Assembly (NCBI GenBank): GCA_020364185.1
Contig: GCA_020364185.1_4846.1
Source: a phage
Direction: 5' to 3' (one strand)
Length of the DNA stretch: 47,086 nucleotides
Positions 1 to 16,697 of this stretch are shown in pieces. The notes under the pieces are model-generated. The model did not search any database, was not told where the DNA came from, and saw only the letters and a list, made by a program, of their open reading frames with translations. Each line of letters opens with the position of its first letter. The stretch's first letter is position 1. The position numbers were made by a program, and so were the translations under genes.

Positions 1-94
1 AAAAAAAATTTTCGTCAAGGTATTGCGTTTACCAACACGTTGACGTATCTTTAAGTCACACCAGCGATATGCTGAGTTAAATCGAGAGGACACT

Positions 95-937
95 ATGAGC
101 TTATCAATGATTCAAAAACCAAAACCAGCAGCGCCAATCATAACATTGGTTGGTACTCCAGGTGTAGGCAAGACAACTCTTGCGGCGCTATTCCCAAACC
201 CAGTGTTTATTCAGGCTGAAGAGATCACTGGTGTTTTTGATGACTGGGATGATGAAAAGAAACCAGATTCATTTCCTGTACTGAAGCGAGCTGATGCTAA
301 ACGCAAAACAAGCACAAAGGATGATTTGCTGTCACAGCTACGCGCATTAATTACTGAGGAACATAATTACAAAACGCTTGTAATTGACTCAATCACAAGC
401 CTGCATTCAATGTTTGAGCATGAGGTTTGTGAAAATTACGGTGTTGACAACGTAGGTTCTGCGGCTGGTGGTTACAACAAAGGATATATTGTTGTTTCTG
501 AAATGCACGCTGAAATAATAAATGCATGTAAGTATCTTCGCAAAGAAAAAGGGATGAGCATTATTTATCTTGCACACGCAGGTGTTAAAAAGATGAAAAA
601 TCGCCCTGATGCTGATGAATACACTGTTTACACACTTGACATGCATGATGCTTCTGTTTCTGGCTATGTGAATCTTAGCGATGCTGTTATTTACATCAGG
701 AATGAGGAGTTCGTTAAAGGAACTGAGACTGATAAGAAAGGGCAGGTGACCAAGTTTGGAAAGGTTGTTCAGACTGGTCAGCGAGTTCTTATTACATCTG
801 GCGATGGTAGAGTTGGATATGTTAATGCAAAAAACAGATACAACCTTGAGCCTGAAATTCCTTTTGAAAAAGGTGAGAACCCACTTTTGAGTGAGATTAA
901 ATATTATGCATCTCTACGAGATAACCAAGCAGCTTAA
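95..937 (+). CDS. Sak4-like recombination ATPase (AAA_24 / RecA-like P-loop)
   Basis: 280-aa ORF with Walker A GTPGVGKTT near N-terminus and hydrophobic strand followed by D (Walker B-like LVIDSITS); ATG at 95 preceded by GAGAGGA RBS; first gene of a replication operon. Confidence 0.8.
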   Translation: MSLSMIQKPKPAAPIITLVGTPGVGKTTLAALFPNPVFIQAEEITGVFDDWDDEKKPDSFPVLKRADAKRKTSTKDDLLSQLRALITEEHNYKTLVIDSITSLHSMFEHEVCENYGVDNVGSAAGGYNKGYIVVSEMHAEIINACKYLRKEKGMSIIYLAHAGVKKMKNRPDADEYTVYTLDMHDASVSGYVNLSDAVIYIRNEEFVKGTETDKKGQVTKFGKVVQTGQRVLITSGDGRVGYVNAKNRYNLEPEIPFEKGENPLLSEIKYYASLRDNQAA

Positions 938-944
938 TGAACTG

Positions 945-1385
945 ATGGCGATGGAGGATATTCCACGGGAGCAGATTGAAGATACCATCAATCTTATTGA
1001 AGAGGAGTTTGAAGGAAAAGCTGAAATGGTCGCTGCTTACATTCGTGAGCTTGAAGCTGATGAAGCTGGACTTAAATCCGAGATTGACCGTCTTTCTGAG
1101 CGTAAGCGTGTTTTAGTTGCGAAGATTGATAACCTTAAAGATTATCTTCGTCAGAACATGATGGCGTCAGGAAAGACAAATATCAAAGGTAAGTTGTTCA
1201 GTATCACTCTTGGCAAAATGTCACCAGTTCTTGATGTGTTTGTCCCTGTTGAACAGCTTCCTGAGCAGTACCGCGTTGTGAAAGTGTCGGCAGATAACGC
1301 AGCAATTAAAAATGCGATAAAAGCCGGGATTGAAATTAAGGGTTGTGCCATCACCGACGGCAAACCAAAACTGATCATCAAATAA
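945..1385 (+). CDS. Gp157-family-like coiled-coil protein (Sak4-associated); start ambiguous (track start 891 overlaps upstream gene)
   Basis: ORF immediately after Sak4-like gene; charged coiled-coil N-terminal half (EEEFEGKAEMVAAYIRELEADEAGLKSEIDRLSERKR); ATG at 945 is first in-frame ATG after upstream stop at 935-937. Confidence 0.45.
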   Translation: MAMEDIPREQIEDTINLIEEEFEGKAEMVAAYIRELEADEAGLKSEIDRLSERKRVLVAKIDNLKDYLRQNMMASGKTNIKGKLFSITLGKMSPVLDVFVPVEQLPEQYRVVKVSADNAAIKNAIKAGIEIKGCAITDGKPKLIIK

Positions 1386-1402
1386 ATCGAGAGGACACAA
1401 AA

Positions 1403-1924
1403 ATGGGTTTCTGGAATCTTTCTGACGGTAAAGCTGTTGAATCTAAATCTGAATTTGAACTGGGTGGTGGTTTCGAAGTAATTCCTGATGGTAGTCGTGT
1501 TCTTGCTGCCGTTGAAGAATGTAAAGACGACCAGTGGGAAGGTGAGCGATTCTTCAATCTTAAGTGGCGAATCCTTGAGGGTGAGTATAAAAATCGCATC
1601 ATCTTTCAGAAGCTGAAAGTATTTAGCTCAAAAGAAAAGCAGCGCGACAATGCTATCACTATGCTTGCAGCAATTGACGCAAACGCCGGTGGCAAGCTGA
1701 TGGCTTCAGGTAAAGAGCCGACTGATTTTGCTATTGCCAGTGCGCTTGCAAATCGCCCAATGATTCTTCTTCTTCGCGTTTGGGAGTCTGAGGATAAGCA
1801 AAAAACTGGTAACTATGTGGCTGGTGTTTTCAGTCGTCAACAGACAAAAGCATCACCTACTCCTAAGCAATCAGCGCCATCTAACGAGCCTCCGATGGAT
1901 TTCGAAGAAGACGTTCCGTTTTGA
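1403..1924 (+). CDS. SSB-like protein with E. coli SSB-type acidic C-terminal tail (putative ssDNA-binding protein)
   Basis: ATG at 1403 preceded by AAATCGAGAGGACAC leader; C-terminus ...SAPSNEPPMDFEEDVPF closely resembles the E. coli SSB tail ...SNEPPMDFDDDIPF (recalled from memory); N-terminal body not obviously canonical. Confidence 0.55.
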   Translation: MGFWNLSDGKAVESKSEFELGGGFEVIPDGSRVLAAVEECKDDQWEGERFFNLKWRILEGEYKNRIIFQKLKVFSSKEKQRDNAITMLAAIDANAGGKLMASGKEPTDFAIASALANRPMILLLRVWESEDKQKTGNYVAGVFSRQQTKASPTPKQSAPSNEPPMDFEEDVPF

Positions 1925-1940
1925 TTTGGATTAGAATTAC

Positions 1941-1966
1941 GGGGCCATTCGTGGCCCTTTTTTATT
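1941..1966 (+). terminator. intrinsic terminator / attenuator between SSB-like gene and helicase
   Basis: GGGCCA-ttcg-TGGCCC perfect 6-bp stem followed by TTTTTTTAT. Confidence 0.55.
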
Positions 1967-1978
1967 CGAGAGGACACT

Positions 1979-3847
1979 ATGAAAGTACAGCTTAGAACAT
2001 ACCAACAAGAAGCTGTTGATTCTGTTATATGTCATATTCGTTCAAGCGTTTCATCGTGCATGATCATCTTGCCTACAGGGTCTGGGAAAAGCGTTGTTGT
2101 TGCATCAATCGCCGATTGGGTATTTAAAAATACTGGCAAGCGCGTTCTGTGCGTTGCCCCAACAAGCGAGTTAGTTGTACAAAACAGGCAGCGTTTTCTT
2201 TCTCTTACCGGCGAGCCAGCCAGCATGTTCAGTGCAAAGGCTGGCCCCAAAAACCTGCGTCACCCGGTAGTGTTTGGTTCACCAGTTACAATCAAGAACT
2301 CAATAGAGATGTTTGGTGATAAGTATGGTGCTGTCATTATTGATGAATGTGATGGAATAACGCCAACCATTAAATTCATTATTAATGAGATGAAGCGTCG
2401 CAATCCAAAACTGCGTGTTATTGGAATGACCGCTACGCCTTACCGCCTTGGAACTGGATACATCTACAAAGAGCATTACCTCGACGGTCCTACAGATGAA
2501 GAAACAGCCATAGACCCATATTACGACAAAGTCGTTTATGAGCTTGAAGCTAAATTTCTCATCGAAAACGGATACCTTACTCCGCCAGTAACAGAGCCTG
2601 TTTTTGACGAGTATGATACGTCTTGTCTTGAAAAGGATAAGTTGGGTCGGTACACGATAGCTTCAGTTGAAAAGGCGATGGTTGGAAAAGGAAGAAAAAC
2701 ATCACGTATTGTTGAAGATATTATCCGTCGCTCTGTTAATCGGCGAGGAACGATGATTTTTGCCAGCACCAAGAAACACGCTATGGAGATAATGGAGTCA
2801 CTTCCTCCCGGTTCTTATAGTTATGTTTTTGGTGATATGCCGACAACGGAACGCAATAAGGCAATATCAGACTTCAAGGCGCAAAAAGTTAAATACATCG
2901 TTAACCAAAATATCCTTACTGTAGGGGTTGATGTTCCTCATTGTGATCACATAGCAGTAATGAGAGCCACAGAATCACCAAGGCTCTATCAGCAAATAAT
3001 TGGCAGGGGGACGCGTCTTTATGAAGGAAAGGAAGATTTTCTTGTCAGCGATTACGCAGGCAACATTCAGCGCCACTTTTCTGCGACTGGGGACTTATTC
3101 ACTCCAGAAATAAAAGCAACAAGGAAAAAACCATCCGTGCCAATGGATGTCAAATGCCCTCTTTGTGGCTTTATTAATGAATTTGGCGTGCGCCCAAATC
3201 CTGAAAATCTTGAAGTTGACAATGAGGGGTACTGGCTTGATCTGGCTGGTGACAGGGTTATGATTGACATTTTTGATAAATCAGGTGAAAAAGTTGGAAG
3301 AAAGCCAATGCCAGCTCATTTTGGCAGGAGGTGTAAAAACTATGTTATGCAAGGACCATTAAGAGAAATGCACAGATGCACTTATAAATGGTCGGTAAAA
3401 GAATGTCCTGATTGTGGATTTGAAAATGATATAGCGGCAAGAAACTGCACATCATGCGGATCTGAAATCATTGACCCAAACCAAAAGCTAAAAGAAGAAG
3501 CTGACAGGCTTGATTCTTCTCCTTATGCAACCAAGCAATCAAGTGTAACCATGATGAATATCATGAAGCATTACGTTTCAAGCGGAGAAGACTTGGTGCA
3601 CGTGAAATTTGCTATTGAGCACAAGCCATTTTTTGTTAGCAAGTTCTACAATCCAAACTCTGAGAAGGAATGGATGAGGAAGGAGTGGGAAGAGTTTTGC
3701 AGTAAGTGCTTTGATGAATCTGACATGTCAATTGATGATGCAATAGCAAAAAGAGATGAGGCTGTCGCGCCATCAGTGATTATGTTCAGAAGAGATAAGG
3801 GTAGTAAATATTTCAACGTTAAAGGCATGTATTGGGGGGTATTATGA
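1979..3847 (+). CDS. SF2 DEAD/DEAH-box DNA helicase with C-terminal Zn-ribbon motifs
   Basis: 622-aa ORF; Walker A LPTGSGKS, DEAD-box-like IIDECD, SAT-like MTATP; two CxxC pairs (CPLCG, CPDCG / CTSCG) in C-terminal region. Confidence 0.8.
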   Translation: MKVQLRTYQQEAVDSVICHIRSSVSSCMIILPTGSGKSVVVASIADWVFKNTGKRVLCVAPTSELVVQNRQRFLSLTGEPASMFSAKAGPKNLRHPVVFGSPVTIKNSIEMFGDKYGAVIIDECDGITPTIKFIINEMKRRNPKLRVIGMTATPYRLGTGYIYKEHYLDGPTDEETAIDPYYDKVVYELEAKFLIENGYLTPPVTEPVFDEYDTSCLEKDKLGRYTIASVEKAMVGKGRKTSRIVEDIIRRSVNRRGTMIFASTKKHAMEIMESLPPGSYSYVFGDMPTTERNKAISDFKAQKVKYIVNQNILTVGVDVPHCDHIAVMRATESPRLYQQIIGRGTRLYEGKEDFLVSDYAGNIQRHFSATGDLFTPEIKATRKKPSVPMDVKCPLCGFINEFGVRPNPENLEVDNEGYWLDLAGDRVMIDIFDKSGEKVGRKPMPAHFGRRCKNYVMQGPLREMHRCTYKWSVKECPDCGFENDIAARNCTSCGSEIIDPNQKLKEEADRLDSSPYATKQSSVTMMNIMKHYVSSGEDLVHVKFAIEHKPFFVSKFYNPNSEKEWMRKEWEEFCSKCFDESDMSIDDAIAKRDEAVAPSVIMFRRDKGSKYFNVKGMYWGVL

Positions 3848-4299
3848 TTTTTCCAGAAGGCGTTAAGGTATATGGTGATTTAGATTACAGAAACAAAAAA
3901 TGCCCGTCAGAAGATGCTGAGCTGGAGACTTTTGTTAATCAGATAAGGAAGATATATCCTGACTTTGCAAGGGTTATGATTCATGTTCCAAATGAAGGCA
4001 AGCGCAAGGGATATGAAGTTGAAAATCTTAAGAAGAAGGGCGCGTTAAATTTCGGAGCATCAGACATTATCATTAACGGAAAGCAATCATTCGTTATGGA
4101 GATGAAGAGAATGGATCATACTTTATCAAAATGGCAGCCCGGTCAAATGGCATACCTAAAGGCGGCAAAAGAATTAGGTTCCTTCGCGTGTGTATGCCTT
4201 GGTTGGGAGGCTGCAATGATGGCATTTAACGACTGGAGAGCAATGAATTACCCAAACTATAAAAAACCATCAGAGCCATTGATATTTGATGGTTTTTAG
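3844..4299 (+). CDS. VRR-NUC domain nuclease (PD-(D/E)xK)
   Basis: ATG at 3844 overlaps helicase stop (ATGA); preceded by GGGGGG; motif GASDIIINGK...FVMEMKR fits D...E-x-K nuclease core; ends with TAG (amber) at 4297-4299. Confidence 0.7.
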   Translation: MIFPEGVKVYGDLDYRNKKCPSEDAELETFVNQIRKIYPDFARVMIHVPNEGKRKGYEVENLKKKGALNFGASDIIINGKQSFVMEMKRMDHTLSKWQPGQMAYLKAAKELGSFACVCLGWEAAMMAFNDWRAMNYPNYKKPSEPLIFDGF

Positions 4300-4419
4300 C
4301 AACAACGCCAGCAATCAGGCCAGCAACCGCAACGACAGCAGCAACAGCGATCAAAACAACAAAGCCCACAAATAGGCAATGAGCCTCCGGTTGGTTTTGA
4401 TGATTCAATACCCTTCTGA
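4300..4419 (+). other. in-frame 39-codon extension after amber stop encoding an SSB-type C-terminal tail (QQRQQSGQQPQRQQQQRSKQQSPQIGNEPPVGFDDSIPF*)
   Basis: direct translation of frame continuing from VRR-NUC TAG; no internal ATG; ends GNEPPVGFDDSIPF then TGA. Confidence 0.4.
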
Positions 4420-4430
4420 TGATAAAACTA

Positions 4431-4458
4431 ACCCCGCCGAAGCGGGGTTTTTGTTGTT
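4431..4458. terminator. bidirectional intrinsic terminator between convergent replication operon and tail module
   Basis: ACCCCGC-cgaa-GCGGGGT stem-loop followed by TTTTTGTTGTT on plus strand and a U-rich tract on minus strand. Confidence 0.65.
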
Positions 4459-4464
4459 ATAATA

Positions 4465-6609
4465 TTAATCAGCGTAAAACATCAAGAACATAATAAGCTC
4501 ATCATAGCGTATTCCGTACCTTACTCCAGCTGGTTTAACCGTTACAACTTCCTCTAACGTTTCTGGATTAATGCTTCTTTCAGAAGATTCTTCCCACTCG
4601 TCCTTGCACCAGAATGCGTAATCCTCTGGTTTAAGTCCATGCTTTGTTAGGATAGAACCAACGGTTTGCGCACCAACACCGAAGTGTGTCCGTGCAGACT
4701 CTTTTCCCTTAAGTTCTATAGCGTCAGTAAACTTATAGCGAATAATATTCTTGCGAATTTCATTGGCCGCTTCCCTTTCCGCACTCTCGTTTGTTGCCTG
4801 GGCTTTTACCTTCAGCGTTTCATCCGATGTGCTTATTGTGCCCGTGGCAGCATAGACAACAGACCATCTATTTGATGTATATCCTAATACGGTCGCATTG
4901 TCTGTATCAGGCATGAATCCATTGTATCCACTAATCTTAAGGTCGCCATTTGGGTTTCCTGATGATGTTTTACCATCATGGCTGGTCAGGGTTACTCCTT
5001 TTGTCCCGGTAGCGGTTGTTATCAAGATACCGGCGTGGGTAGCACCCAGAAGCTGAATTTCGCTATTATCGTTGCGTAAATCCTGCGCAGGTGCCTCTAG
5101 CACAGATGACGTGAATTTCCATTTCGTATCAGAAAAAAGTTCGACCGGTTGTACGCCATCCTTCTGATACATAATGGCTTTAACCCCGGAGTCCTTGCGT
5201 CTTACACCGATGGCATTTGGTTGCGACCCGGACCAGTTAGACGCGAAAGTAAACCCGTCAAATTCCACCAATGACTCATAAGGATTGCTGGTATCGTTAT
5301 TGATGGGTTCTGTAATAAAAATCCATCCCCAGTCGAAATAGTTATTATAAGTCCCTACGTTAGCATCTATCTGATACGCCCGGGTGCATACCCCCCCATA
5401 GTAACCGTAGAATCTCAGGTTCCCGGCAACTTGTGAGTCGGAGCTTACGGTTTTAACCACGCGCACACCACACGGCACATCTGCGGGACCCGTCGTTTTG
5501 GTTATATTCTCACAAGAGCCGCCAAACACCCGAAGTGAGTCCGTGCTTTCAATCCAGAACGCACAGTTTCCCGTTACGTGAACTGGGTTGTAAATAGTGA
5601 TTCTGGTATTGTTGTTGTCACCTGAAACACTCCGATTGAATCTAAACCCGCAGTCAACGTTTTCAAATACTGGATTTTTTATGGTGTGGTAATACGCGCC
5701 GCTGTTAGCCCCAGAAACTGTTGGTCCTGGTTGCAGTAACACCCCTACAGACACGTCTGTCGCTTTTGGGTTGTTAAGCTGACAAAACTGTTGCGATACA
5801 CGCGTAGTAGTTTGTGTAAGATCTTCTGGGCTTATTGCGTATGCCACTACCTCTGTGAAACCATCTGGATTTATTACCGCAGGGTTGGTTACGATACAGA
5901 AATCATGACTCATTCGTAGACATGTTATGCCAGAAGCTCCTGCTACGATTGTCGTACCAGTGAAATCAATATACCTTGTAGATGTAACATCCTGCGTATA
6001 CGAGCCATCGAACTTCATCACAAGACTTTGTGTTATGCGATATCTCGCACCTACTCTTCCTGTTAATTTACCAAACGGCACCCCTTCCAACCACGACAAT
6101 GCCGCCAGCATCGCGGAGGTATCATTAGTTACCCCGTCGCCAATGGCACCGAACTCTTCAAATGACTTTATTGTCGTAACTCGATGGGCAATCTGGTCAA
6201 TTGTTGCACCATGCTTTGTTAGATCAGTTCTAATAGACGCATCACCAACACTAACCCACGCTCCCAGACCAATGCCACCGGAAGTTTCAGGAGCTGAGCC
6301 AGATGGTACGGTTTTAGGAAACGCACCATCCCAACGGTAATATTCTCCGGTAGCTTCATAACGCAAAACCTGATTTGGTAGTGTCAGTGTCGCCCCATCT
6401 TCAAAGCTATCCATTGTTATGTAGCCATAATTACGGATAGCCTCTTCTGCGGTGTACTGAAAACCAGCAATTGTCCAGCGGCGTACACCGAATCGGTCGG
6501 TGTAGTAATGCGCGTCAGAGTTGACAACTTCGTCAATTTTCCCTGCATTAAATTTCAGGTCTCGCGGGTCTTCTGACGGAATTGGTTTATTGGTTGGTGT
6601 GGTAGACAT
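4465..6609 (-). CDS. tail fibre / tailspike with C-terminal intramolecular chaperone (peptidase S74-like) domain
   Basis: 714 aa from ATG at 6609 (AAGGAG RBS 9 nt upstream); Gly/Ser/Thr-rich beta-rich body; C-terminal region ...SNRWSVVYAATGTISTSDETLKVKAQ...IRYKFTDAIELKG... resembles autocleaving chaperone of endosialidase-type fibres. Confidence 0.7.
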   Translation of the reverse strand: MSTTPTNKPIPSEDPRDLKFNAGKIDEVVNSDAHYYTDRFGVRRWTIAGFQYTAEEAIRNYGYITMDSFEDGATLTLPNQVLRYEATGEYYRWDGAFPKTVPSGSAPETSGGIGLGAWVSVGDASIRTDLTKHGATIDQIAHRVTTIKSFEEFGAIGDGVTNDTSAMLAALSWLEGVPFGKLTGRVGARYRITQSLVMKFDGSYTQDVTSTRYIDFTGTTIVAGASGITCLRMSHDFCIVTNPAVINPDGFTEVVAYAISPEDLTQTTTRVSQQFCQLNNPKATDVSVGVLLQPGPTVSGANSGAYYHTIKNPVFENVDCGFRFNRSVSGDNNNTRITIYNPVHVTGNCAFWIESTDSLRVFGGSCENITKTTGPADVPCGVRVVKTVSSDSQVAGNLRFYGYYGGVCTRAYQIDANVGTYNNYFDWGWIFITEPINNDTSNPYESLVEFDGFTFASNWSGSQPNAIGVRRKDSGVKAIMYQKDGVQPVELFSDTKWKFTSSVLEAPAQDLRNDNSEIQLLGATHAGILITTATGTKGVTLTSHDGKTSSGNPNGDLKISGYNGFMPDTDNATVLGYTSNRWSVVYAATGTISTSDETLKVKAQATNESAEREAANEIRKNIIRYKFTDAIELKGKESARTHFGVGAQTVGSILTKHGLKPEDYAFWCKDEWEESSERSINPETLEEVVTVKPAGVRYGIRYDELIMFLMFYAD

Positions 6610-6648
6610 TATAATAAATGCTCCTTTGTGAATTTGATGCATATTGTA

Positions 6649-9977
<3,329 letters not shown>

Positions 9978-9989
9978 TTATACCTCTCG

Positions 9990-11360
9990 TCAGATGTTGA
10001 ATTTTATTGTTGTGATGTACTTACTACCCCACGCAGAATCAGCTTGCGGGATAGTCGCGTAATCATCTACAGACGGAACGTTTACCACAGTTCCGTCGGA
10101 ATAGGTAATGTCAATGCTTGTTGCGCCATTCATTACTACTTTTGCTGATGTCGTTGGTCTGATTACCGGTGACGCCTCTGTTACTATCGGGGATGTGGCA
10201 AACGGTGATTTTTCTATTTGCATCGCGCACGCTAATATCCCGCTAACCCCGTCACCGGCGAATGAAGCAACAGCTGAGTTGTTGTATACCCATGACGCTA
10301 AAAGCAGAGAAGACGCGCCGCCCGGGCGTATAACTACCGTTTCTGTAAATCGATACCAACCATCACCAAGCTCTGTTATATCGCTACCAGAGCCGCCCGC
10401 GTAAATAGTCCCGGTCGATAAACCAGCAACACAATCCGCGATAAACCCCGCATCATCAGCGGCGCGAAGTCTCGCATAATTATAACCATAAGCCTTAGCA
10501 ACGTAACTGAGGGTGTATACATCACCATCCGCAAAAGCAGAAGACACTGATTGTTGTACGATATGGTTGCCATTTGTCGCGGTCGGAACTAGTGAGAACG
10601 TACCGCCGTTTAGAATTCCGTCAACTGCGTCTGACACTGTTGTGCTAGTTTTTGACCACGATGCGTCGGATAATTTCGACGATTTAATCAGGATATTGCT
10701 GGATGCAGGTTCCGGCGGCACGCGCCCAACGGCAACCCCATCAATAAACGTAAGAGGCCATTCATTAGTGGCGGACTGCACAAGATTGCCGTTGCGGTTG
10801 ATGTAGTATACCTGCGGACCATCGTAAACAATGCGACTATCAAGCGTAGATGACAGCATGTTAATTGGCATATGCAGTATCGGTGTCATATAGACTTGCG
10901 GGAGTTCACGGTTAACAACTTCGTCAAGCCAGCTATACCATCTGTAATCCAGTTCGACAAGAACATCATCGAACTCATCCATCGTGTTATTGAGTTTCTT
11001 GGCGATGACATTGCCGGTCCACGTCACTACGCCGCCATCAATGCTGGTCTGTACAGGGTAATCGGTAAAGTGCAGCGTCTGCTCCTGCAATCCGCTGCCG
11101 CCGAGGTCAATCATCATGGTGAACCAGTTATTACATTTGTTGAGGTAACTCGGACTACGCAACCACTGGATAAATGCACGCTCCTCCGCCAGTGTAAAAA
11201 TCCACGTCAGACTCCATGTGGCTGCAATGTCAGTCGTTAATTTTTGAAATATCGGCGCCCCAACGGCTGGGGTATCCTTCCTGAAAGGGGTCTGAAACGT
11301 AAGGTTTTTGCTAGATCTTTGCGCCAAAGGCAGCCAGTCAGGGTATTTGATGATAGCCAT
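9990..11360 (-). CDS. minor tail protein (distal tail-like)
   Basis: 456-aa ORF immediately downstream of tape measure gene (start codon shares a base with the TMP stop codon at 11360). Confidence 0.45.
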   Translation of the reverse strand: MAIIKYPDWLPLAQRSSKNLTFQTPFRKDTPAVGAPIFQKLTTDIAATWSLTWIFTLAEERAFIQWLRSPSYLNKCNNWFTMMIDLGGSGLQEQTLHFTDYPVQTSIDGGVVTWTGNVIAKKLNNTMDEFDDVLVELDYRWYSWLDEVVNRELPQVYMTPILHMPINMLSSTLDSRIVYDGPQVYYINRNGNLVQSATNEWPLTFIDGVAVGRVPPEPASSNILIKSSKLSDASWSKTSTTVSDAVDGILNGGTFSLVPTATNGNHIVQQSVSSAFADGDVYTLSYVAKAYGYNYARLRAADDAGFIADCVAGLSTGTIYAGGSGSDITELGDGWYRFTETVVIRPGGASSLLLASWVYNNSAVASFAGDGVSGILACAMQIEKSPFATSPIVTEASPVIRPTTSAKVVMNGATSIDITYSDGTVVNVPSVDDYATIPQADSAWGSKYITTIKFNI

Positions 11361-13735
11361 TATTCGGTTGCTCTCCGGTTTGCTGAGTAGTTGCGGCTAA
11401 TGCTTTGCCCAATGGGGCCGTTGTTTTCTATGTCACTAACGATAGTCTCAATTGTCACGCTGCCATCACCATTATCTCTGGCGCTGCTGCTGACCTGAGC
11501 GGAGCTATTGTTGATAACGCTATTATAAACCACAACGCCACTACCACCTCCGGTAATGTCTTTGTTGCTGATAACTGAGCCATCGTTGCCTGGAATCATG
11601 TACTGGCGACCGTTGGACGCCTGGAATATCTCAGGCAAGCCATTCTCTCCCACTTCGTACATGCTTCCGGCACTAACAGGGCCACCATTTTTACGCTTGC
11701 CAGCGATACCCATCGCTAGTGCCCCTAGAACGGCACCTACCCCAATTGCAGCCGCTCCACCGAATGAGCCGATTGATGCTACGATTGCTGCCGGAGTCCA
11801 TGCTGCGGTAGTGGTTGCTGCCGCCGCCGTGGATGCTGCTGTTGTGGTTGCCAGTCCTGCCGTTTGCGCCGCTGTGGTTGTCGCTGTGGCTGCAACCTGT
11901 GCAGTCTGCCCCATAACCGCAGATTTTACCCACTGCACGCCCATTTCGACGAAGCTGTTTACCAGCGAGTTAAGCACCGTAGAGCCGAGGCTACGCATGG
12001 CATCCTGAACGCTCATTGTACCTGTCAGCAATCCGGTAATACTGTTTGAGGCTGTGCTCATCGCGGAATCCAGTGCGGTTCCGAACAGTTGCGCTCCGAG
12101 GCTTTGCTGCTGCCATTCAGCCCACATGGCATCCATTCTCTGCTGGCGGTATTGTGCTTCAATGGACGCGCGAGTCTGTTCAATCTCTGTAATTTTTTGC
12201 GGGTACGCAGCAGCATAGGCTTCAAGGTCAGCCATGCGTTGCTGGTATTCGCTATCAATGCCAGACGTTGGCGATGCAATGGCGCGCAGTCCCTGATATG
12301 ATTTTTCTACACGCTGCCTTTCCTTCTCCGCTTCTGCCTGCTCCTTCAACGCATTCTTCTGGTCCCAAATCTTAGCGGCGTATTCTCCAGCCAGCTTTAT
12401 CTGCTCCTGAGTTGCCGCCTTGCCAAGTGATTGCTGAGCATTGAGAATGGCTTGTTCACGGGATAGTTCGCTGGTAGATGTAGCATTAAGCATGGTCTGC
12501 TGGCGTAACTTCTCCAGCTTTTCAGCGATTGATTCAGCTTGTCGTTCTTCGGCGCTTTTTCCCTTTCCTTTGCCTTTTTTGTCTTTGGTTGGTGCTTGTG
12601 CAATCTTCAGGTGTTTTGTTGCTTCAGCCTGCTTCTTTGTCTGCTCGTAACCTTCAGCGGATGCCTTAACAAATCGCTCAACCTGATCGTTGTATTGTTT
12701 TTGCTTTTCAATGTCGTCATCACCGAAAAGCGCATCCACCCCCATCTGAGCCCATGCGCCGGGGTTTAATTTCGAAATTACGGTTGCAAGAGAGAGAATC
12801 TTATCGCTTGTGCTGGTTGATTTATCGCCGAGAAAATCAATGTATTTTGCCAGTTGGTCGATAATCTCTACCGCTGTTTTTGATGCACCAGTAGCATCGT
12901 TAACGGCAACCACAAGTTTTGAGAATGAAACTTCAAGCGAGCCAACAGCCTGATCCATTGTGCGAGGGAGTTTTTCAAACTCAGCATTAACGACGCTTGT
13001 CCTGTCCTGAATGGCATTTAACGCATCCTCAGCAGTCAGTTTCCCGTCGAGCATTCTGGCGCGGAGTTCACCCATTGAAATGCCAAGTCCCGCTGCAATC
13101 TGGCGAGCAAGTTCCGGCATCTGTTCAAGGATAGAGTTAAATTCTTCGGCGCGGATTGTGCCAGAAGCGATTGACTGACCGAACTGACGCAGTGCGTTCG
13201 CCATTTCCTCAGTTGAAGAGCCTCCGATTCGACCTATTTTTTGTAGTGTATCGGTGAGGTTAAGCACCTGCGCATTCGTCGCGCCAGCCTCTTTCAGTGA
13301 TGATGTTAACGTTTCCCATAACTTCGTTGTATCACTGAGGCTTGCGCCAGTCGTTGATGCGATATTTGCCAGTGAGCTAAATGTTTCGTTCGCAGTTTTT
13401 GCATCAGTTGACAGGCGAGCAATTCTTGCCTGAAGCTGTGTCATGTTATCAGCAACCTCAAGGAATCTTTTCCCCCATTCGATAATCAACGACACGGATA
13501 TTGCACCAGCCAACATGGATATGCTGGTTTTAAGCCCTGAAGCTGCACCGCCAGCATTCTTCATTCCGCTGCCAGCATTGCGTGCGCCTTTGTCCAGTTT
13601 GTTAAGCTCACCAGTGGTTTTATTCAGTGATGATTCAAGGTCATCCAGAGTCTTGTTGGCTGTTGTCGCGCCAGCTTTCAGGCCTTTAACATCCATCCCA
13701 ACTTCATAAACAATTCCGCCGACTTCTTCAGCCAT
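11360..13735 (-). CDS. tail tape measure protein
   Basis: 791 aa, long alpha-helical/coiled-coil N-terminal two thirds, Ala/Gly/Thr-rich hydrophobic segment (AATATTTAAQTAGLATTTAASTAAAATTTAAWTPAAIVASIGSFGGAAAIGVGAVLGAL); between chaperone and minor tail genes. Confidence 0.8.
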   Translation of the reverse strand: MAEEVGGIVYEVGMDVKGLKAGATTANKTLDDLESSLNKTTGELNKLDKGARNAGSGMKNAGGAASGLKTSISMLAGAISVSLIIEWGKRFLEVADNMTQLQARIARLSTDAKTANETFSSLANIASTTGASLSDTTKLWETLTSSLKEAGATNAQVLNLTDTLQKIGRIGGSSTEEMANALRQFGQSIASGTIRAEEFNSILEQMPELARQIAAGLGISMGELRARMLDGKLTAEDALNAIQDRTSVVNAEFEKLPRTMDQAVGSLEVSFSKLVVAVNDATGASKTAVEIIDQLAKYIDFLGDKSTSTSDKILSLATVISKLNPGAWAQMGVDALFGDDDIEKQKQYNDQVERFVKASAEGYEQTKKQAEATKHLKIAQAPTKDKKGKGKGKSAEERQAESIAEKLEKLRQQTMLNATSTSELSREQAILNAQQSLGKAATQEQIKLAGEYAAKIWDQKNALKEQAEAEKERQRVEKSYQGLRAIASPTSGIDSEYQQRMADLEAYAAAYPQKITEIEQTRASIEAQYRQQRMDAMWAEWQQQSLGAQLFGTALDSAMSTASNSITGLLTGTMSVQDAMRSLGSTVLNSLVNSFVEMGVQWVKSAVMGQTAQVAATATTTAAQTAGLATTTAASTAAAATTTAAWTPAAIVASIGSFGGAAAIGVGAVLGALAMGIAGKRKNGGPVSAGSMYEVGENGLPEIFQASNGRQYMIPGNDGSVISNKDITGGGSGVVVYNSVINNSSAQVSSSARDNGDGSVTIETIVSDIENNGPIGQSISRNYSANRRATE

Positions 13736-16620: not shown

Positions 16621-16697
16621 GGACGCGTAGCTTAATTGGTTAAAGCAACCGACTCATAATCGGCTGATTGAAGGTTCAAATCCGTCCGTGTCCACCA
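16621..16697 (+). tRNA. tRNA-Met (anticodon CAU; could be initiator/elongator Met or lysidine-modified Ile2)
   Basis: manual fold: 7-bp acceptor stem (one G-U), U8, D-arm GCTT/AAGC with GG in loop, anticodon loop CUCAUAA, T-loop TTCAAAT, discriminator A and encoded CCA; two stem mismatches. Confidence 0.6.

Follow-up and report, generated by a model that had tools for sequence, protein, structure and literature searches.

Does a phage nuclease gene that is followed, in its own frame, by the codons of an SSB-type tail ever produce a nuclease carrying that tail, or is the tail what is left of another gene? The question is raised by a 47,086-nt stretch of phage DNA, referred to here as the window. 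A preliminary description of the locus had offered three options: amber readthrough or suppression of the nuclease stop, the relic of a second ssb gene, or a longer fusion gene interrupted by an amber mutation or a sequencing error. Its account of the reading frames is borne out by sequence and translation: the nuclease ORF ends with TAG at 4297-4299, and the 39 in-frame codons that follow (4300-4416) contain neither a stop nor an ATG before they end in TGA. These codons translate as QQRQQSGQQPQRQQQQRSKQQSPQIGNEPPVGFDDSIPF, and in-frame GTG and TTG are absent from them as well. We conclude that 4300-4425 is very probably the stranded, untranslated 3' end of a bacterial-type ssb gene, made up of linker, acidic tip and stops, and that the locus is most likely an ordinary scar of phage mosaicism. 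The features concerned are the following.

95-937, plus strand: Sak4-like AAA_24 ATPase (Pfam AAA_24, E 1.9e-27).
1403-1924, plus strand: DUF669 protein, PHROG 9002 'single strand DNA binding protein' (database matches).
3844-4299, plus strand: VRR-NUC-type nuclease gene, 151 aa (ORF and translation).
4297-4299, plus strand: native stop of the nuclease gene and mosaic junction (a stop in all related loci; left edge of blastn homology).
4300-4377, plus strand: probable ssb relic, part 1, a Gln/Pro-rich linker of 26 codons (65-67 of 75 nt identical to ssb of Segz_1 and ASO78B).
4378-4416, plus strand: probable ssb relic, part 2, the acidic tip NEPPVGFDDSIPF (a near-match to Segz_1 ssb).
4417-4425, plus strand: TGA TGA TAA, stops probably inherited from ssb (identical triplets follow the ssb genes of Segz_1 and ASO78B).
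4430-4449, both strands: bidirectional intrinsic terminator hairpin AACCCCGCCGAAGCGGGGTT (terminator scan).
4465-6642, minus strand: convergent tailspike gene, 725 aa (ORF; Pfam Tail_spike_N and Peptidase_S74).
6219-9135, minus strand: second block of homology to ssb-type siblings, comprising the tailspike anchor and an 828-aa baseplate hub (blastn, 85-89%).

The nuclease ORF begins at ATG 3844 or TTG 3832, and hypothetical readthrough of a chain begun at ATG 3844 would yield 191 aa. The gene is the final member of a module with the order Sak4, gp157, DUF669-SSB, helicase, nuclease. The VRR-NUC label that it had been given finds no echo in Pfam, where a search with the protein returned no match even at E up to 10, and the protein belongs to PHROG 824, which is listed as 'unknown function'. 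The label is supported, however, by three other lines of evidence: a profile built from 23 nuclease sequences matched PDB 4qbl ('VRR-NUC') at E 3.7e-4; the AlphaFold model (pLDDT 85.8) gave 4qbl_F, 4qbl_B and 4qbl_C as its best Foldseek matches, with 4qbl_F first (probability 1.0, TM 0.60/0.73); and D74, E86 and K88 are invariant in the alignment of 23 homologues. The nuclease is thus predicted to have the VRR-NUC fold of the PD-(D/E)XK superfamily, together with its D...E-x-K catalytic residues.

The resemblance of the tail to an SSB tail had been judged too strong for chance, and comparison with other phages confirms this. Over some 150-160 nt, positions 4298-4460 share 82-89% of their nucleotides with annotated 3' ends of bacterial-type ssb genes and their terminator (E values as low as 2e-51), and an ssb 3' end is annotated in most of the 192 phage records that match this segment. 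In the sibling phages Segz_1, ASO78B and BUCT541 the gene order is helicase, VRR-NUC homologue, exonuclease, recombinase, ssb, terminator and convergent tailspike; the ssb product is recognised by Pfam SSB at E 7.5e-38, and the VRR-NUC homologue shares 30% amino acid identity with the window nuclease. What the window retains of such a gene is the last 39 of about 161 codons: the SSB OB-fold (PF00436) is absent from the locus, and the 151 aa upstream of the tail are nuclease. The window tip, VGFDDSIPF, departs from the consensus MDFDD[DS]IPF by M to V and D to G. It had also been described as almost identical to the tail of the upstream SSB-like DUF669 protein, which overstates the case, as only 7 of 13 residues match NEPPMDFEEDVPF; siblings such as Segz_1 and ASO78B have ssb tails that resemble the tip far more. 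A duplicated DUF669 tail was rejected as the source of the segment on this count and because linker and tip together are 88% identical in nucleotides to sibling ssb. The DUF669 protein ends in a genuine E. coli-SSB-like tip of its own (...SNEPPMDFEEDVPF) and, judged by its sequence, would be the phage's own working SSB-like protein.

Two further ORFs overlap this segment. The +1-frame ORF annotated as gp12 in Sf11, where it has 60 aa, lacks conservation and spans only 28 codons in the window, from ATG 4289 to a TAG; Sf11 gp12 overlaps the relic and is probably a spurious annotation. The other, a hydrophobic antisense ORF of 60 aa at 4226-4408, arises as a side effect of the CAA/CAG repeats.

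Where the homology to ssb-type siblings begins is informative. Comparison of window positions 1-12000 with Segz_1 and ASO78B by blastn returned two blocks only, one at 4298/4300-4452/4468 (88%) and the other from 6219 onward (85-89%), and no homology to either phage was found left of the nuclease stop. Because this edge falls exactly at the nuclease stop, we take the site to be the junction of a module swap. The second block runs to the ends of the fetched loci, at 8259 for Segz_1 and 8572 for ASO78B; it covers the tailspike N-terminal anchor, which is common to the window and the ssb-type siblings, and part of the baseplate hub ORF (6649-9135, 828 aa), whose Sf11 homologue, gp14, is BHUB2 (PMC12724387). 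Together, the tailspike anchor and the hub (6219-9135) define the structural module to which the relic belongs. The rest of the window genome is about 90% identical to both ssb-type and Sf11-type phages.

The pattern of identity also led us to reject a simple deletion within one genome, in which the interval from nuclease to ssb would have shrunk to nuclease plus tail. The helicase and nuclease of ssb-type siblings share 26-30% protein identity with those of the window, whereas the SSB-type tail and the phage tail genes share 85-89% of their DNA; such divergent genes beside near-identical DNA argue for replacement of a module rather than for deletion. The Sak4-like ATPase gene is the first in the module that replaced exonuclease, recombinase and ssb. 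In P400 and RS51pmB, distant carriers of the Sak4-type module, the nuclease gene abuts convergent tail genes and the SSB-type tail is absent. Several marks of a gene remnant are thus seen at the locus: firstly, an intact homologous gene occupies the syntenic position upstream of the convergent tailspike; secondly, homology is lost sharply at the junction, the block starting at 4298/4300; thirdly, both the OB-fold and a start codon are missing. That an ssb 3' end occupies the same position in sibling phages supports the second option of the preliminary description, the relic of an ssb gene.

Among relatives, the end of the tail is well preserved. All 23 distinct loci examined that carry a tip beside VRR-NUC keep its last six residues (D[DS]IPF), and 22 of them have an open tail ORF; the exception, L016, has an internal TAG inside the tail. 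Of the three junction classes, the E. coli and Klebsiella groups have the tail in the nuclease frame, and the VLCpiS13b-like group has it in the +1 frame (L013, L039 and L040). Three lineages (ECO95/S.Kent, gmqsjt-1 and the P0002 group) have no tip. Unrelated sequence or the lack of a conserved frame in related phages had been named beforehand as evidence against a meaningful in-frame tail; this is seen in part, ECO95, gmqsjt-1 and the P0002 group being tipless and the VLCpiS13b group having the tip in another frame.

The substitutions that separate these copies bear on whether the tail is under selection. Singletons in the tail are spread over the three codon positions as 10/8/14 (12 synonymous, 19 nonsynonymous, 1 stop), as compared to 5/5/42 in the adjacent nuclease gene, and their density in the tail (0.27 per site) is about that of nuclease third positions (0.28). 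Recent substitutions in the tail look neutral-like. A bias toward third positions is confined to the shared, older variants (3/3/16), which is what an origin in working ssb genes would lead one to expect. Most singletons (22 of the 32) lie in alignment codons 1-26, the linker part. Within the final 7 codons, the E. coli group shows a single one against about 5.7 expected if they were evenly spread (Poisson estimate about 0.02); in the Klebsiella group, all five singletons in the last 8 codons are synonymous.

Haplotypes shared with intact ssb genes offer a source for this conservation. The tip and first stop of the window (4378-4419) are identical to the real ssb of Segz_1 at 37 of 42 positions, but to the relics of its closest relatives, Sf11, Sa179lw and ECO111, at only 28-30 of 42. 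Similarly, the tip and terminator of Sf11 are 95% identical to the real ssb of ZCEC08, and the short tail of the Klebsiella type shares 91-94% identity with the ends of genuine ssb genes in BUCT541, ZC2 and KlebP_265; a tip and terminator of the Klebsiella type are found in YX3973. We attribute the conservation of the tip to import from working ssb genes, to which weak selection on a translated product may add.

The segment is also found beside tailspike genes outside these siphoviruses. In a terminator scan of both strands, the hairpin at 4430-4449 is common to the nuclease and convergent tailspike transcripts, and its 20 nt are matched by blastn beside tailspike genes of Kuttervirus, Gamaleyavirus and Kayfunavirus. 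The receptor-binding part of the window tailspike is an exchanged one, about 91% identical to Kuttervirus tailspikes (blastn). In the T7-like podovirus IMEP24, the copy comprises the final 33 nt of nuclease sequence, the TAG and a shortened tail whose tip is intact; it adjoins the tail-fibre gene, is antisense to all IMEP24 genes and is non-coding. The stub of the nuclease gene points to a Cedarrivervirus-like siphovirus as the donor. Decayed copies of the relic lie downstream of the tailspike genes of the N4-like phages PhAPEC5 and phi G17. These copies suggest that tailspike cassettes take the ssb-derived stretch with them when they move into T7-like and N4-like podoviruses.

Whether the stop codon is real, and whether it is ever passed, can be weighed against the related loci. 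Orthologous loci were compared for a sense codon at the position of the nuclease stop, and none was found among roughly 35: all keep TAG, TAA or TGA, with TAG or TAA in the E. coli group and TGA or TAA in the Klebsiella group; Sf11, Sa179lw and RSU-F4K5 are among those with TAA. Nor was a fused nuclease-tail protein present among 56 homologues retrieved with the 191-aa query, all of which are <=152 aa and none of which covers the tail. A longer nuclease-SSB-tail fusion gene broken in this isolate by an amber mutation or a sequencing error, suggested by the in-frame arrangement only, is refuted by these comparisons and has next to no probability: every relative stops at exactly that codon, TAA and TGA included, in independent isolates and metagenomic assemblies alike, and no homologue is over 152 aa. 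A recoding event is improbable rather than refuted. In such an event a few ribosomes would read through TAG, TAA or TGA or, in the VLCpiS13b-like class, slip by +1 at TTT TGA C; equally improbable is the product, a nuclease whose SSB-type tip docks on proteins that bind SSB tails, for instance the Sak4 ATPase, the helicase, or host PriA, RecG or RecQ. A T-run before a stop (a 'shifty stop') favours slippage, and one lies directly 5' of the stop in every tip-bearing class (GGT TTT TAG, AGT TTT TGA, GAG TTT TGA C), the base after the stop being C in the E. coli and VLCpiS13b-like classes and A in the Klebsiella class; where the tail is in the +1 frame, that frame continues open through the nuclease stop. 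The open, in-frame tail of the E. coli and Klebsiella groups is consistent with recoding, as are the uniformly intact D[DS]IPF and last 7-8 codons that change almost only synonymously. The module moreover includes a Sak4-type ATPase, and one member of the Sak4 family binds its cognate SSB via the last six residues of the latter (PMC5928155). Yet the identity of the stop varies, the extension is interrupted in L016, shifted in the +1-frame subgroup and gone from the three tipless lineages, and fused homologues are lacking. Recent substitutions are even across codon positions, and the tip variants are common to real ssb genes. IMEP24 holds the identical junction and an intact tip as non-coding DNA, and the window tip has itself lost the Met and one Asp.

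The hallmarks of programmed readthrough are likewise missing from the locus: we found neither a conserved leaky stop with its context, nor an open extension conserved under purifying selection in all relatives, nor a stimulatory RNA element or suppressor tRNA. ARAGORN detected no suppressor tRNA in the window, where the sole tRNA is a tRNA-Met (16621-16697); the fold of 4285-4425 was no better than that of shuffled sequences (z -0.28); and an Rfam scan of 3700-4700 returned no family above threshold, its sub-threshold matches being driven by the terminator hairpin. The Sf11 study that included virion mass spectrometry (PMC12724387) mentions neither gp11 nor gp12, and the nuclease is non-structural. 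Readthrough or suppression of the amber codon, the first option of the preliminary description, is thus unsupported, and a shade less probable still is its more elaborate form, in which T-run and stop would act as a low-efficiency recoding site, the borrowed SSB tip would tether a minor fraction of the nuclease to partners of SSB tails (the phage Sak4 ATPase or host fork-repair proteins), and a stranded fragment would have been reused. We regard as very unlikely that termination-reinitiation in the Klebsiella group yields a free SSB-tip peptide of 22-24 aa competing with host SSB. TGA ATG or TAA ATG does occur in XY3, VLCpiS13c, 6991, RSU-F4K5 and most of L022-L029; against this, the tails of the E. 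coli group begin without an in-frame start at or close to their first codon (in the window, the whole tail is free of one), L026 has ATT in place of ATG, and the VLCpiS13b-like group has no ATG. The 'ATG AAA' of these loci aligns with CAG CAA in the real ssb of BUCT541, and therefore looks like relic drift.

A stranded ssb 3' end remains our preferred reading, and its origin may be pictured as follows. The phages form a pool of siphoviruses of roughly 46-48 kb, with structural genes about 90% identical in nucleotides and one of two alternative recombination modules upstream of a convergent tailspike: either helicase, VRR-NUC homologue, exonuclease, recombinase and ssb, or Sak4, gp157, DUF669-SSB, helicase and VRR-NUC. 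In the window lineage, we infer, the Sak4-type module now occupies the former site of the exonuclease/recombinase/ssb module. The right-hand crossover would have fallen inside the ssb linker, immediately 3' of the nuclease stop, and the last 38-39 ssb codons would have stayed behind with the ssb terminator. Translation of the nuclease would stop at TAG 4297, and the relic, including the linker codons at 4300-4377, would be 3' UTR of the nuclease mRNA up to the shared terminator at 4430-4449; its in-frame placement would be luck, at one chance in three. The relic may still be recognisable because it is young and has been repeatedly overwritten. Tip and terminator would provide a stretch of homology common to ssb-bearing siblings and tailspike cassettes, crossovers that swap tailspike receptor-binding domains may occur there, and the relic would later have been carried along with the swapped tailspike genes.

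The main value of the locus is cautionary: a motif-bearing, in-frame extension past a stop can mimic programmed readthrough and yet be the scar of a module exchange. It also pins to the base a swap of alternative recombination modules within a backbone that is roughly 90% identical, and places the terminator motif downstream of tailspikes, in these phages, within a longer ssb-derived stretch. Recognising the relic helps with annotation, as for Sf11 gp12, and with tracing the exchange of host range. Were recoding true, the locus would stand as a rare example of an SSB interaction tip borrowed by a phage nuclease.

Known systems resemble the locus only in part. Programmed readthrough and shifty stops are exemplified by the Q-beta A1 protein and by CUU UGA C in prfB. 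Like these, the locus has an in-frame (or +1) extension after a stop preceded by a T-run; unlike these, its stop varies in identity, it is without a stimulatory structure or a Shine-Dalgarno-like element, and the extension has suffered nonsense or frameshift damage in some relatives and is missing from others. E. coli SSB combines a disordered linker with an acidic C-terminal tip, ...MDFDDDIPF. The linker and tip of the relic are homologous at the DNA level to phage ssb genes of this bacterial type (PF00436), but the relic has neither the OB-fold nor a start codon, and the frame upstream of it is that of an unrelated nuclease.

A parallel to the 3' side of the locus comes from a survey of motifs flanking RBP genes, which were proposed as recombination hotspots (PMC10408124). 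Its section on motifs describes 'motif three', a predicted terminator of 20 nt that follows RBP genes in Gamaleya-, Kutter-, Justusliebig-, Kayfuna- and Nouzillyviruses, and makes no mention there of an ssb-derived or nuclease extension (PMC10408124). The hairpin at 4430-4449, also 20 nt long and 3' of a tailspike, may correspond to motif three, judged by length, site and genera. Unlike motif three, the conserved stretch here extends roughly 120 nt more, into the ssb fragment and, in IMEP24, into the 3' end of the nuclease gene.

Mosaic junctions in tailed phages, lambdoid and other, are a product of modular evolution and leave behind gene remnants and boundary sequences. The locus shares with them a sharp break in nucleotide homology at a gene boundary, a leftover gene fragment and variable presence among close relatives; its recent drift looks neutral, though the last 7 codons are poor in singletons. 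It differs from the usual remnant in that its fragment happens to continue the reading frame of the gene before it and codes for a well-known interaction motif, and so looks functional, and in that the fragment is kept fresh by exchange with intact sibling ssb genes.

The nuclease gene closes a module that reads, in order, Sak4-like AAA_24 ATPase, gp157-family protein, DUF669/PHROG 9002 SSB-like protein, DEAD-box helicase and nuclease, and its reading frame continues beyond the stop codon as follows:

1403-1924, + strand: DUF669/PHROG 9002 SSB-like gene, with an E. coli SSB-like tip, ...SAPSNEPPMDFEEDVPF
3844 (ATG; or TTG 3832) to 4297-4299 (TAG), + strand: nuclease ORF, from ORF search and translation
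4300-4416, + strand: in-frame tail of 39 codons, reading QQRQQSGQQPQRQQQQRSKQQSPQIGNEPPVGFDDSIPF
4430-4449, both strands: predicted bidirectional intrinsic terminator hairpin
4465-6642, - strand: convergent tailspike ORF, 725 aa

Translation bore out the preliminary description of the tail, which is free of stops and of in-frame start codons and runs to TGA TGA TAA. From sequence comparison, we read it as a genuine feature that calls for no unusual explanation: what is left of the 3' end of a bacterial-type ssb gene where two modules were exchanged. On this reading its frame agrees with that of the nuclease by chance (one in three), and recombination with sibling phages would keep it recognisable. 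The DUF669 protein upstream ends ...SNEPPMDFEEDVPF; its tip is kept in all relatives, in variants that look functional (MDFDDDIPF, MDFDSDVPF, VDFDDDVPF, VDYDDDIPF). The Sak4-type ATPase adjoins this protein with a non-canonical SSB fold and a host-type interaction tail. A 60-aa antisense ORF over the relic (4226-4408, - strand), whose product is very hydrophobic, is a by-product of CAA/CAG-rich sequence on the opposite strand. Phage Sf11 carries an annotated 60-aa hypothetical protein, gp12 (4690-4872 of the fetched locus), in the +1 frame across relic and terminator; its equivalent in the window is just 28 codons long (ATG 4289), and gp12 is probably a spurious gene call.

The likeness to an SSB tail, earlier judged very unlikely by chance, proved to be homology: in a blastn search of 50,697 phage records (192 matching, most with an ssb annotation), 4298-4460 matched the 3' end and terminator of annotated single-stranded DNA-binding protein genes at 82-89% identity, with E down to 2e-51. 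Pfam identifies one such product, from ASO78B, as a full SSB (E 7.5e-38). The window, a siphovirus, lies near Shigella phage Sf11, Escherichia phage Sa179lw, Klebsiella phage YX3973 and ECO111 5-P (~91% nucleotide identity across the locus), and its 9000-30000 interval is ~90% identical to Sf11-type phages and equally to ssb-type siblings such as IME207, swi2, Akira and Seszw_1. At the same position these siblings carry helicase, a VRR-NUC homologue (30% amino acid identity to the window nuclease), exonuclease, recombinase, ssb, terminator and convergent tailspike. Comparison of window 1-12000 with two ssb-type siblings (blastn) gave only two blocks of homology:

4298/4300-4452/4468: 88% identity
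6219 to the end of the fetched loci: 85-89% identity, covering the tailspike anchor and an 828-aa hub protein

No match lay left of the nuclease stop codon in this comparison, which makes the stop codon the left edge of structural-module homology. The 39 codons would be the final part of a sibling ssb gene, stranded when one recombination module replaced the other. Homology to ssb 3' ends, synteny and the homology edge at the stop codon thus favour the proposed relic of a second ssb gene. Among orthologous loci, none of ~35 has a sense codon at the stop, and the ssb-type siblings have a full ssb gene in the same place. The more distant Sak4-module carriers Yersinia phage P400 and Proteus phage RS51pmB, in which the nuclease gene abuts convergent tail genes and the tail is absent, fit a tail that belongs to the structural/ssb side and not to the nuclease. 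The 'Salmonella phage seszw' series (MZ375326, MZ375330, MZ375334 and others; 36.5-46 kb) comprises progressively smaller genomes of one ssb-type sibling; in the smaller ones only the terminator is left and the match to the ssb tail has gone, a sign that this backbone may do without ssb.

The ~35 related loci, drawn from GenBank, IMG/VR and other assemblies, all end the nuclease here, with TAG or TAA in the E. coli group and TGA or TAA in the Klebsiella group; a stop in every relative excludes an isolate-specific amber mutation or sequencing error in a longer fusion gene, as had been considered. What follows the stop varies. One locus (L016) has a second in-frame stop within the tail (QQRQQSG*QPQ...), the VLCpiS13b-like subgroup (L013, L039, L040) carries its tail (..PPMEDDIPF) in the +1 frame, only a 21-nt remnant is left in the P0002 group, and in ECO95/S.Kent and gmqsjt-1 the stop runs directly into the terminator. 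In the +1 subgroup the relic directly follows GAG TTT TGA C/A (locus position ~2950-3010), its frame open across the stop. The UNVERIFIED records ECO95 1-6-1 (L007, 3668-3670) and S.Kent 1-2-1 have an in-frame TAG at nuclease codon 142, followed by 10 more homologous codons to the usual stop, possibly a genuine truncation or an assembly error. The tail of the Klebsiella group is shorter (MKPS..KPPxNEPPMDFDDDIPF), its DNA 91-94% identical to the real ssb ends of BUCT541, ZC2 and KlebP_265; opposite its 'ATG AAA' the BUCT541 ssb has CAG CAA in the alignment, and one locus (L026) reads ATT, not ATG.

Tips are likewise shared with working genes. The window tip (4378-4419) is identical at 37/42 positions to the real ssb of Segz_1 and at 28-30/42 to the relics of Sf11, Sa179lw and ECO111; the Sf11 tip and terminator are 95% identical to the ZCEC08 real ssb, and YX3973 joins an E. 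coli-group nuclease to a Klebsiella-type tip and terminator. Tip variants common to relics and real ssb genes mark the tail as a place where recombination with ssb-bearing siblings recurs and would keep the tip looking fresh.

Fragments of tail and terminator also occur in unrelated podoviruses, directly downstream of tailspike or tail-fibre genes. N4-like PhAPEC5 and phi G17 hold decayed copies (MGPDNSIPF with an upstream TAA, and MGFSDDIPL), and T7-like IMEP24 (Kayfunavirus, 2967-3089 of the fetched locus) holds the final 33 nt of the nuclease gene together with the TAG and a shortened tail whose ..NEPPMDFDDDIPF is intact, downstream of the tail-fibre gene and antisense to every neighbouring gene. 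An intact tip in an antisense copy means that selection on a product is not needed to explain one. IMEP24 shares a further stretch of homology at the tailspike anchor (window 6201-6348). Its copy is direct evidence for transfer of a tailspike cassette linking a Cedarrivervirus-like siphovirus with a T7-like phage, and the whole junction can move as baggage of such a cassette. These copies fit the published tailspike exchange across these genera and the conserved 20-nt terminator motif downstream of receptor-binding-protein genes, a proposed recombination hotspot (PMC10408124), and the P22/Sf6-like tailspike of the Sf11 tail (PMC12724387). The window tailspike has a Peptidase_S74 intramolecular chaperone domain at its end, and its C-terminus with the terminator (4430-4700, - strand) shares ~90-91% identity with the tailspike genes of Kuttervirus myoviruses of 157 kb (Salmonella phage 38, PhaxI, SS3, SS9).

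We tabulated variation in the E. coli group, dividing variants into singletons and shared, a division more telling than the totals.

Variation by codon position (1/2/3)
Nuclease (151 codons), variable sites: 7/6/59
Tail (39 codons), variable sites: 13/9/24
Nuclease, singletons: 5/5/42
Tail, singletons: 10/8/14
Tail, shared variants: 3/3/16

The 32 tail singletons (12 synonymous, 19 nonsynonymous, 1 nonsense) have a density of 0.27 per site, equal to that of nuclease third positions (0.28); this density and the spread over positions suggest that recent tail mutations accrue as in unconstrained DNA. Older tail polymorphisms look as if they had been filtered in a working gene.

The nuclease itself belongs to PHROG 824 ('unknown function') and was not recognised by Pfam. 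A 23-sequence profile matched PDB 4qbl 'VRR-NUC' (E 3.7e-4), the AlphaFold model (pLDDT 85.8) gave 4qbl chains as top Foldseek matches (probability 1.0, TM 0.60/0.73), and D74, E86 and K88 are invariant among homologues, supporting a predicted VRR-NUC-type PD-(D/E)XK nuclease. Residues 134-151 (4243-4296) form an extra C-terminal extension of ~18 residues, predicted to be unstructured (pLDDT 62-73) and present also in a close subgroup (L007-L013, L036-L040); Phe is always last (..LIFDGF, ..IQIDSF, ..TTINNF, ..NVINEF, ..IDIESF), and we take it to resemble a C-terminal docking motif (clamp-binding-like Q-L-x-x-F). Readthrough, if true, would bury this extension.

Amber readthrough or suppression, raised in the preliminary description, is unsupported, and the varying stop identity, the internal stop, the +1 subgroup and the tail losses speak against it; when the hypothetical 191-aa product was compared with 5.8 billion proteins, the 56 homologues retrieved had a maximum length of 152 aa, and the tail was covered by none of them. 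ARAGORN found a single tRNA in the 47-kb window, tRNA-Met (CAT; 16621-16697, + strand), the fold of the RNA spanning and following the stop did not surpass that of shuffled controls (z -0.28), and no Rfam family reached threshold. A rare recoded product under weak selection seems to us improbable. It would account for a tail ORF open in 22/23 distinct tip-bearing loci (L016 excepted), a final D[DS]IPF intact in all 23 and one singleton in the last seven codons of the E. coli group against ~5.7 expected under even spread; the tail is in frame in two of the three junction classes, and a T-run precedes the stop in every tip-bearing class. One Sak4 protein depends on the six C-terminal residues of its SSB (PMC5928155), which also counts towards a tail function. 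So does the GAG TTT TGA C/A context of the out-of-frame, VLCpiS13b-like class, which resembles the CUU UGA C shifty stop of prfB. In our reading, the tip is conserved through import from working ssb genes and because the relic is young.
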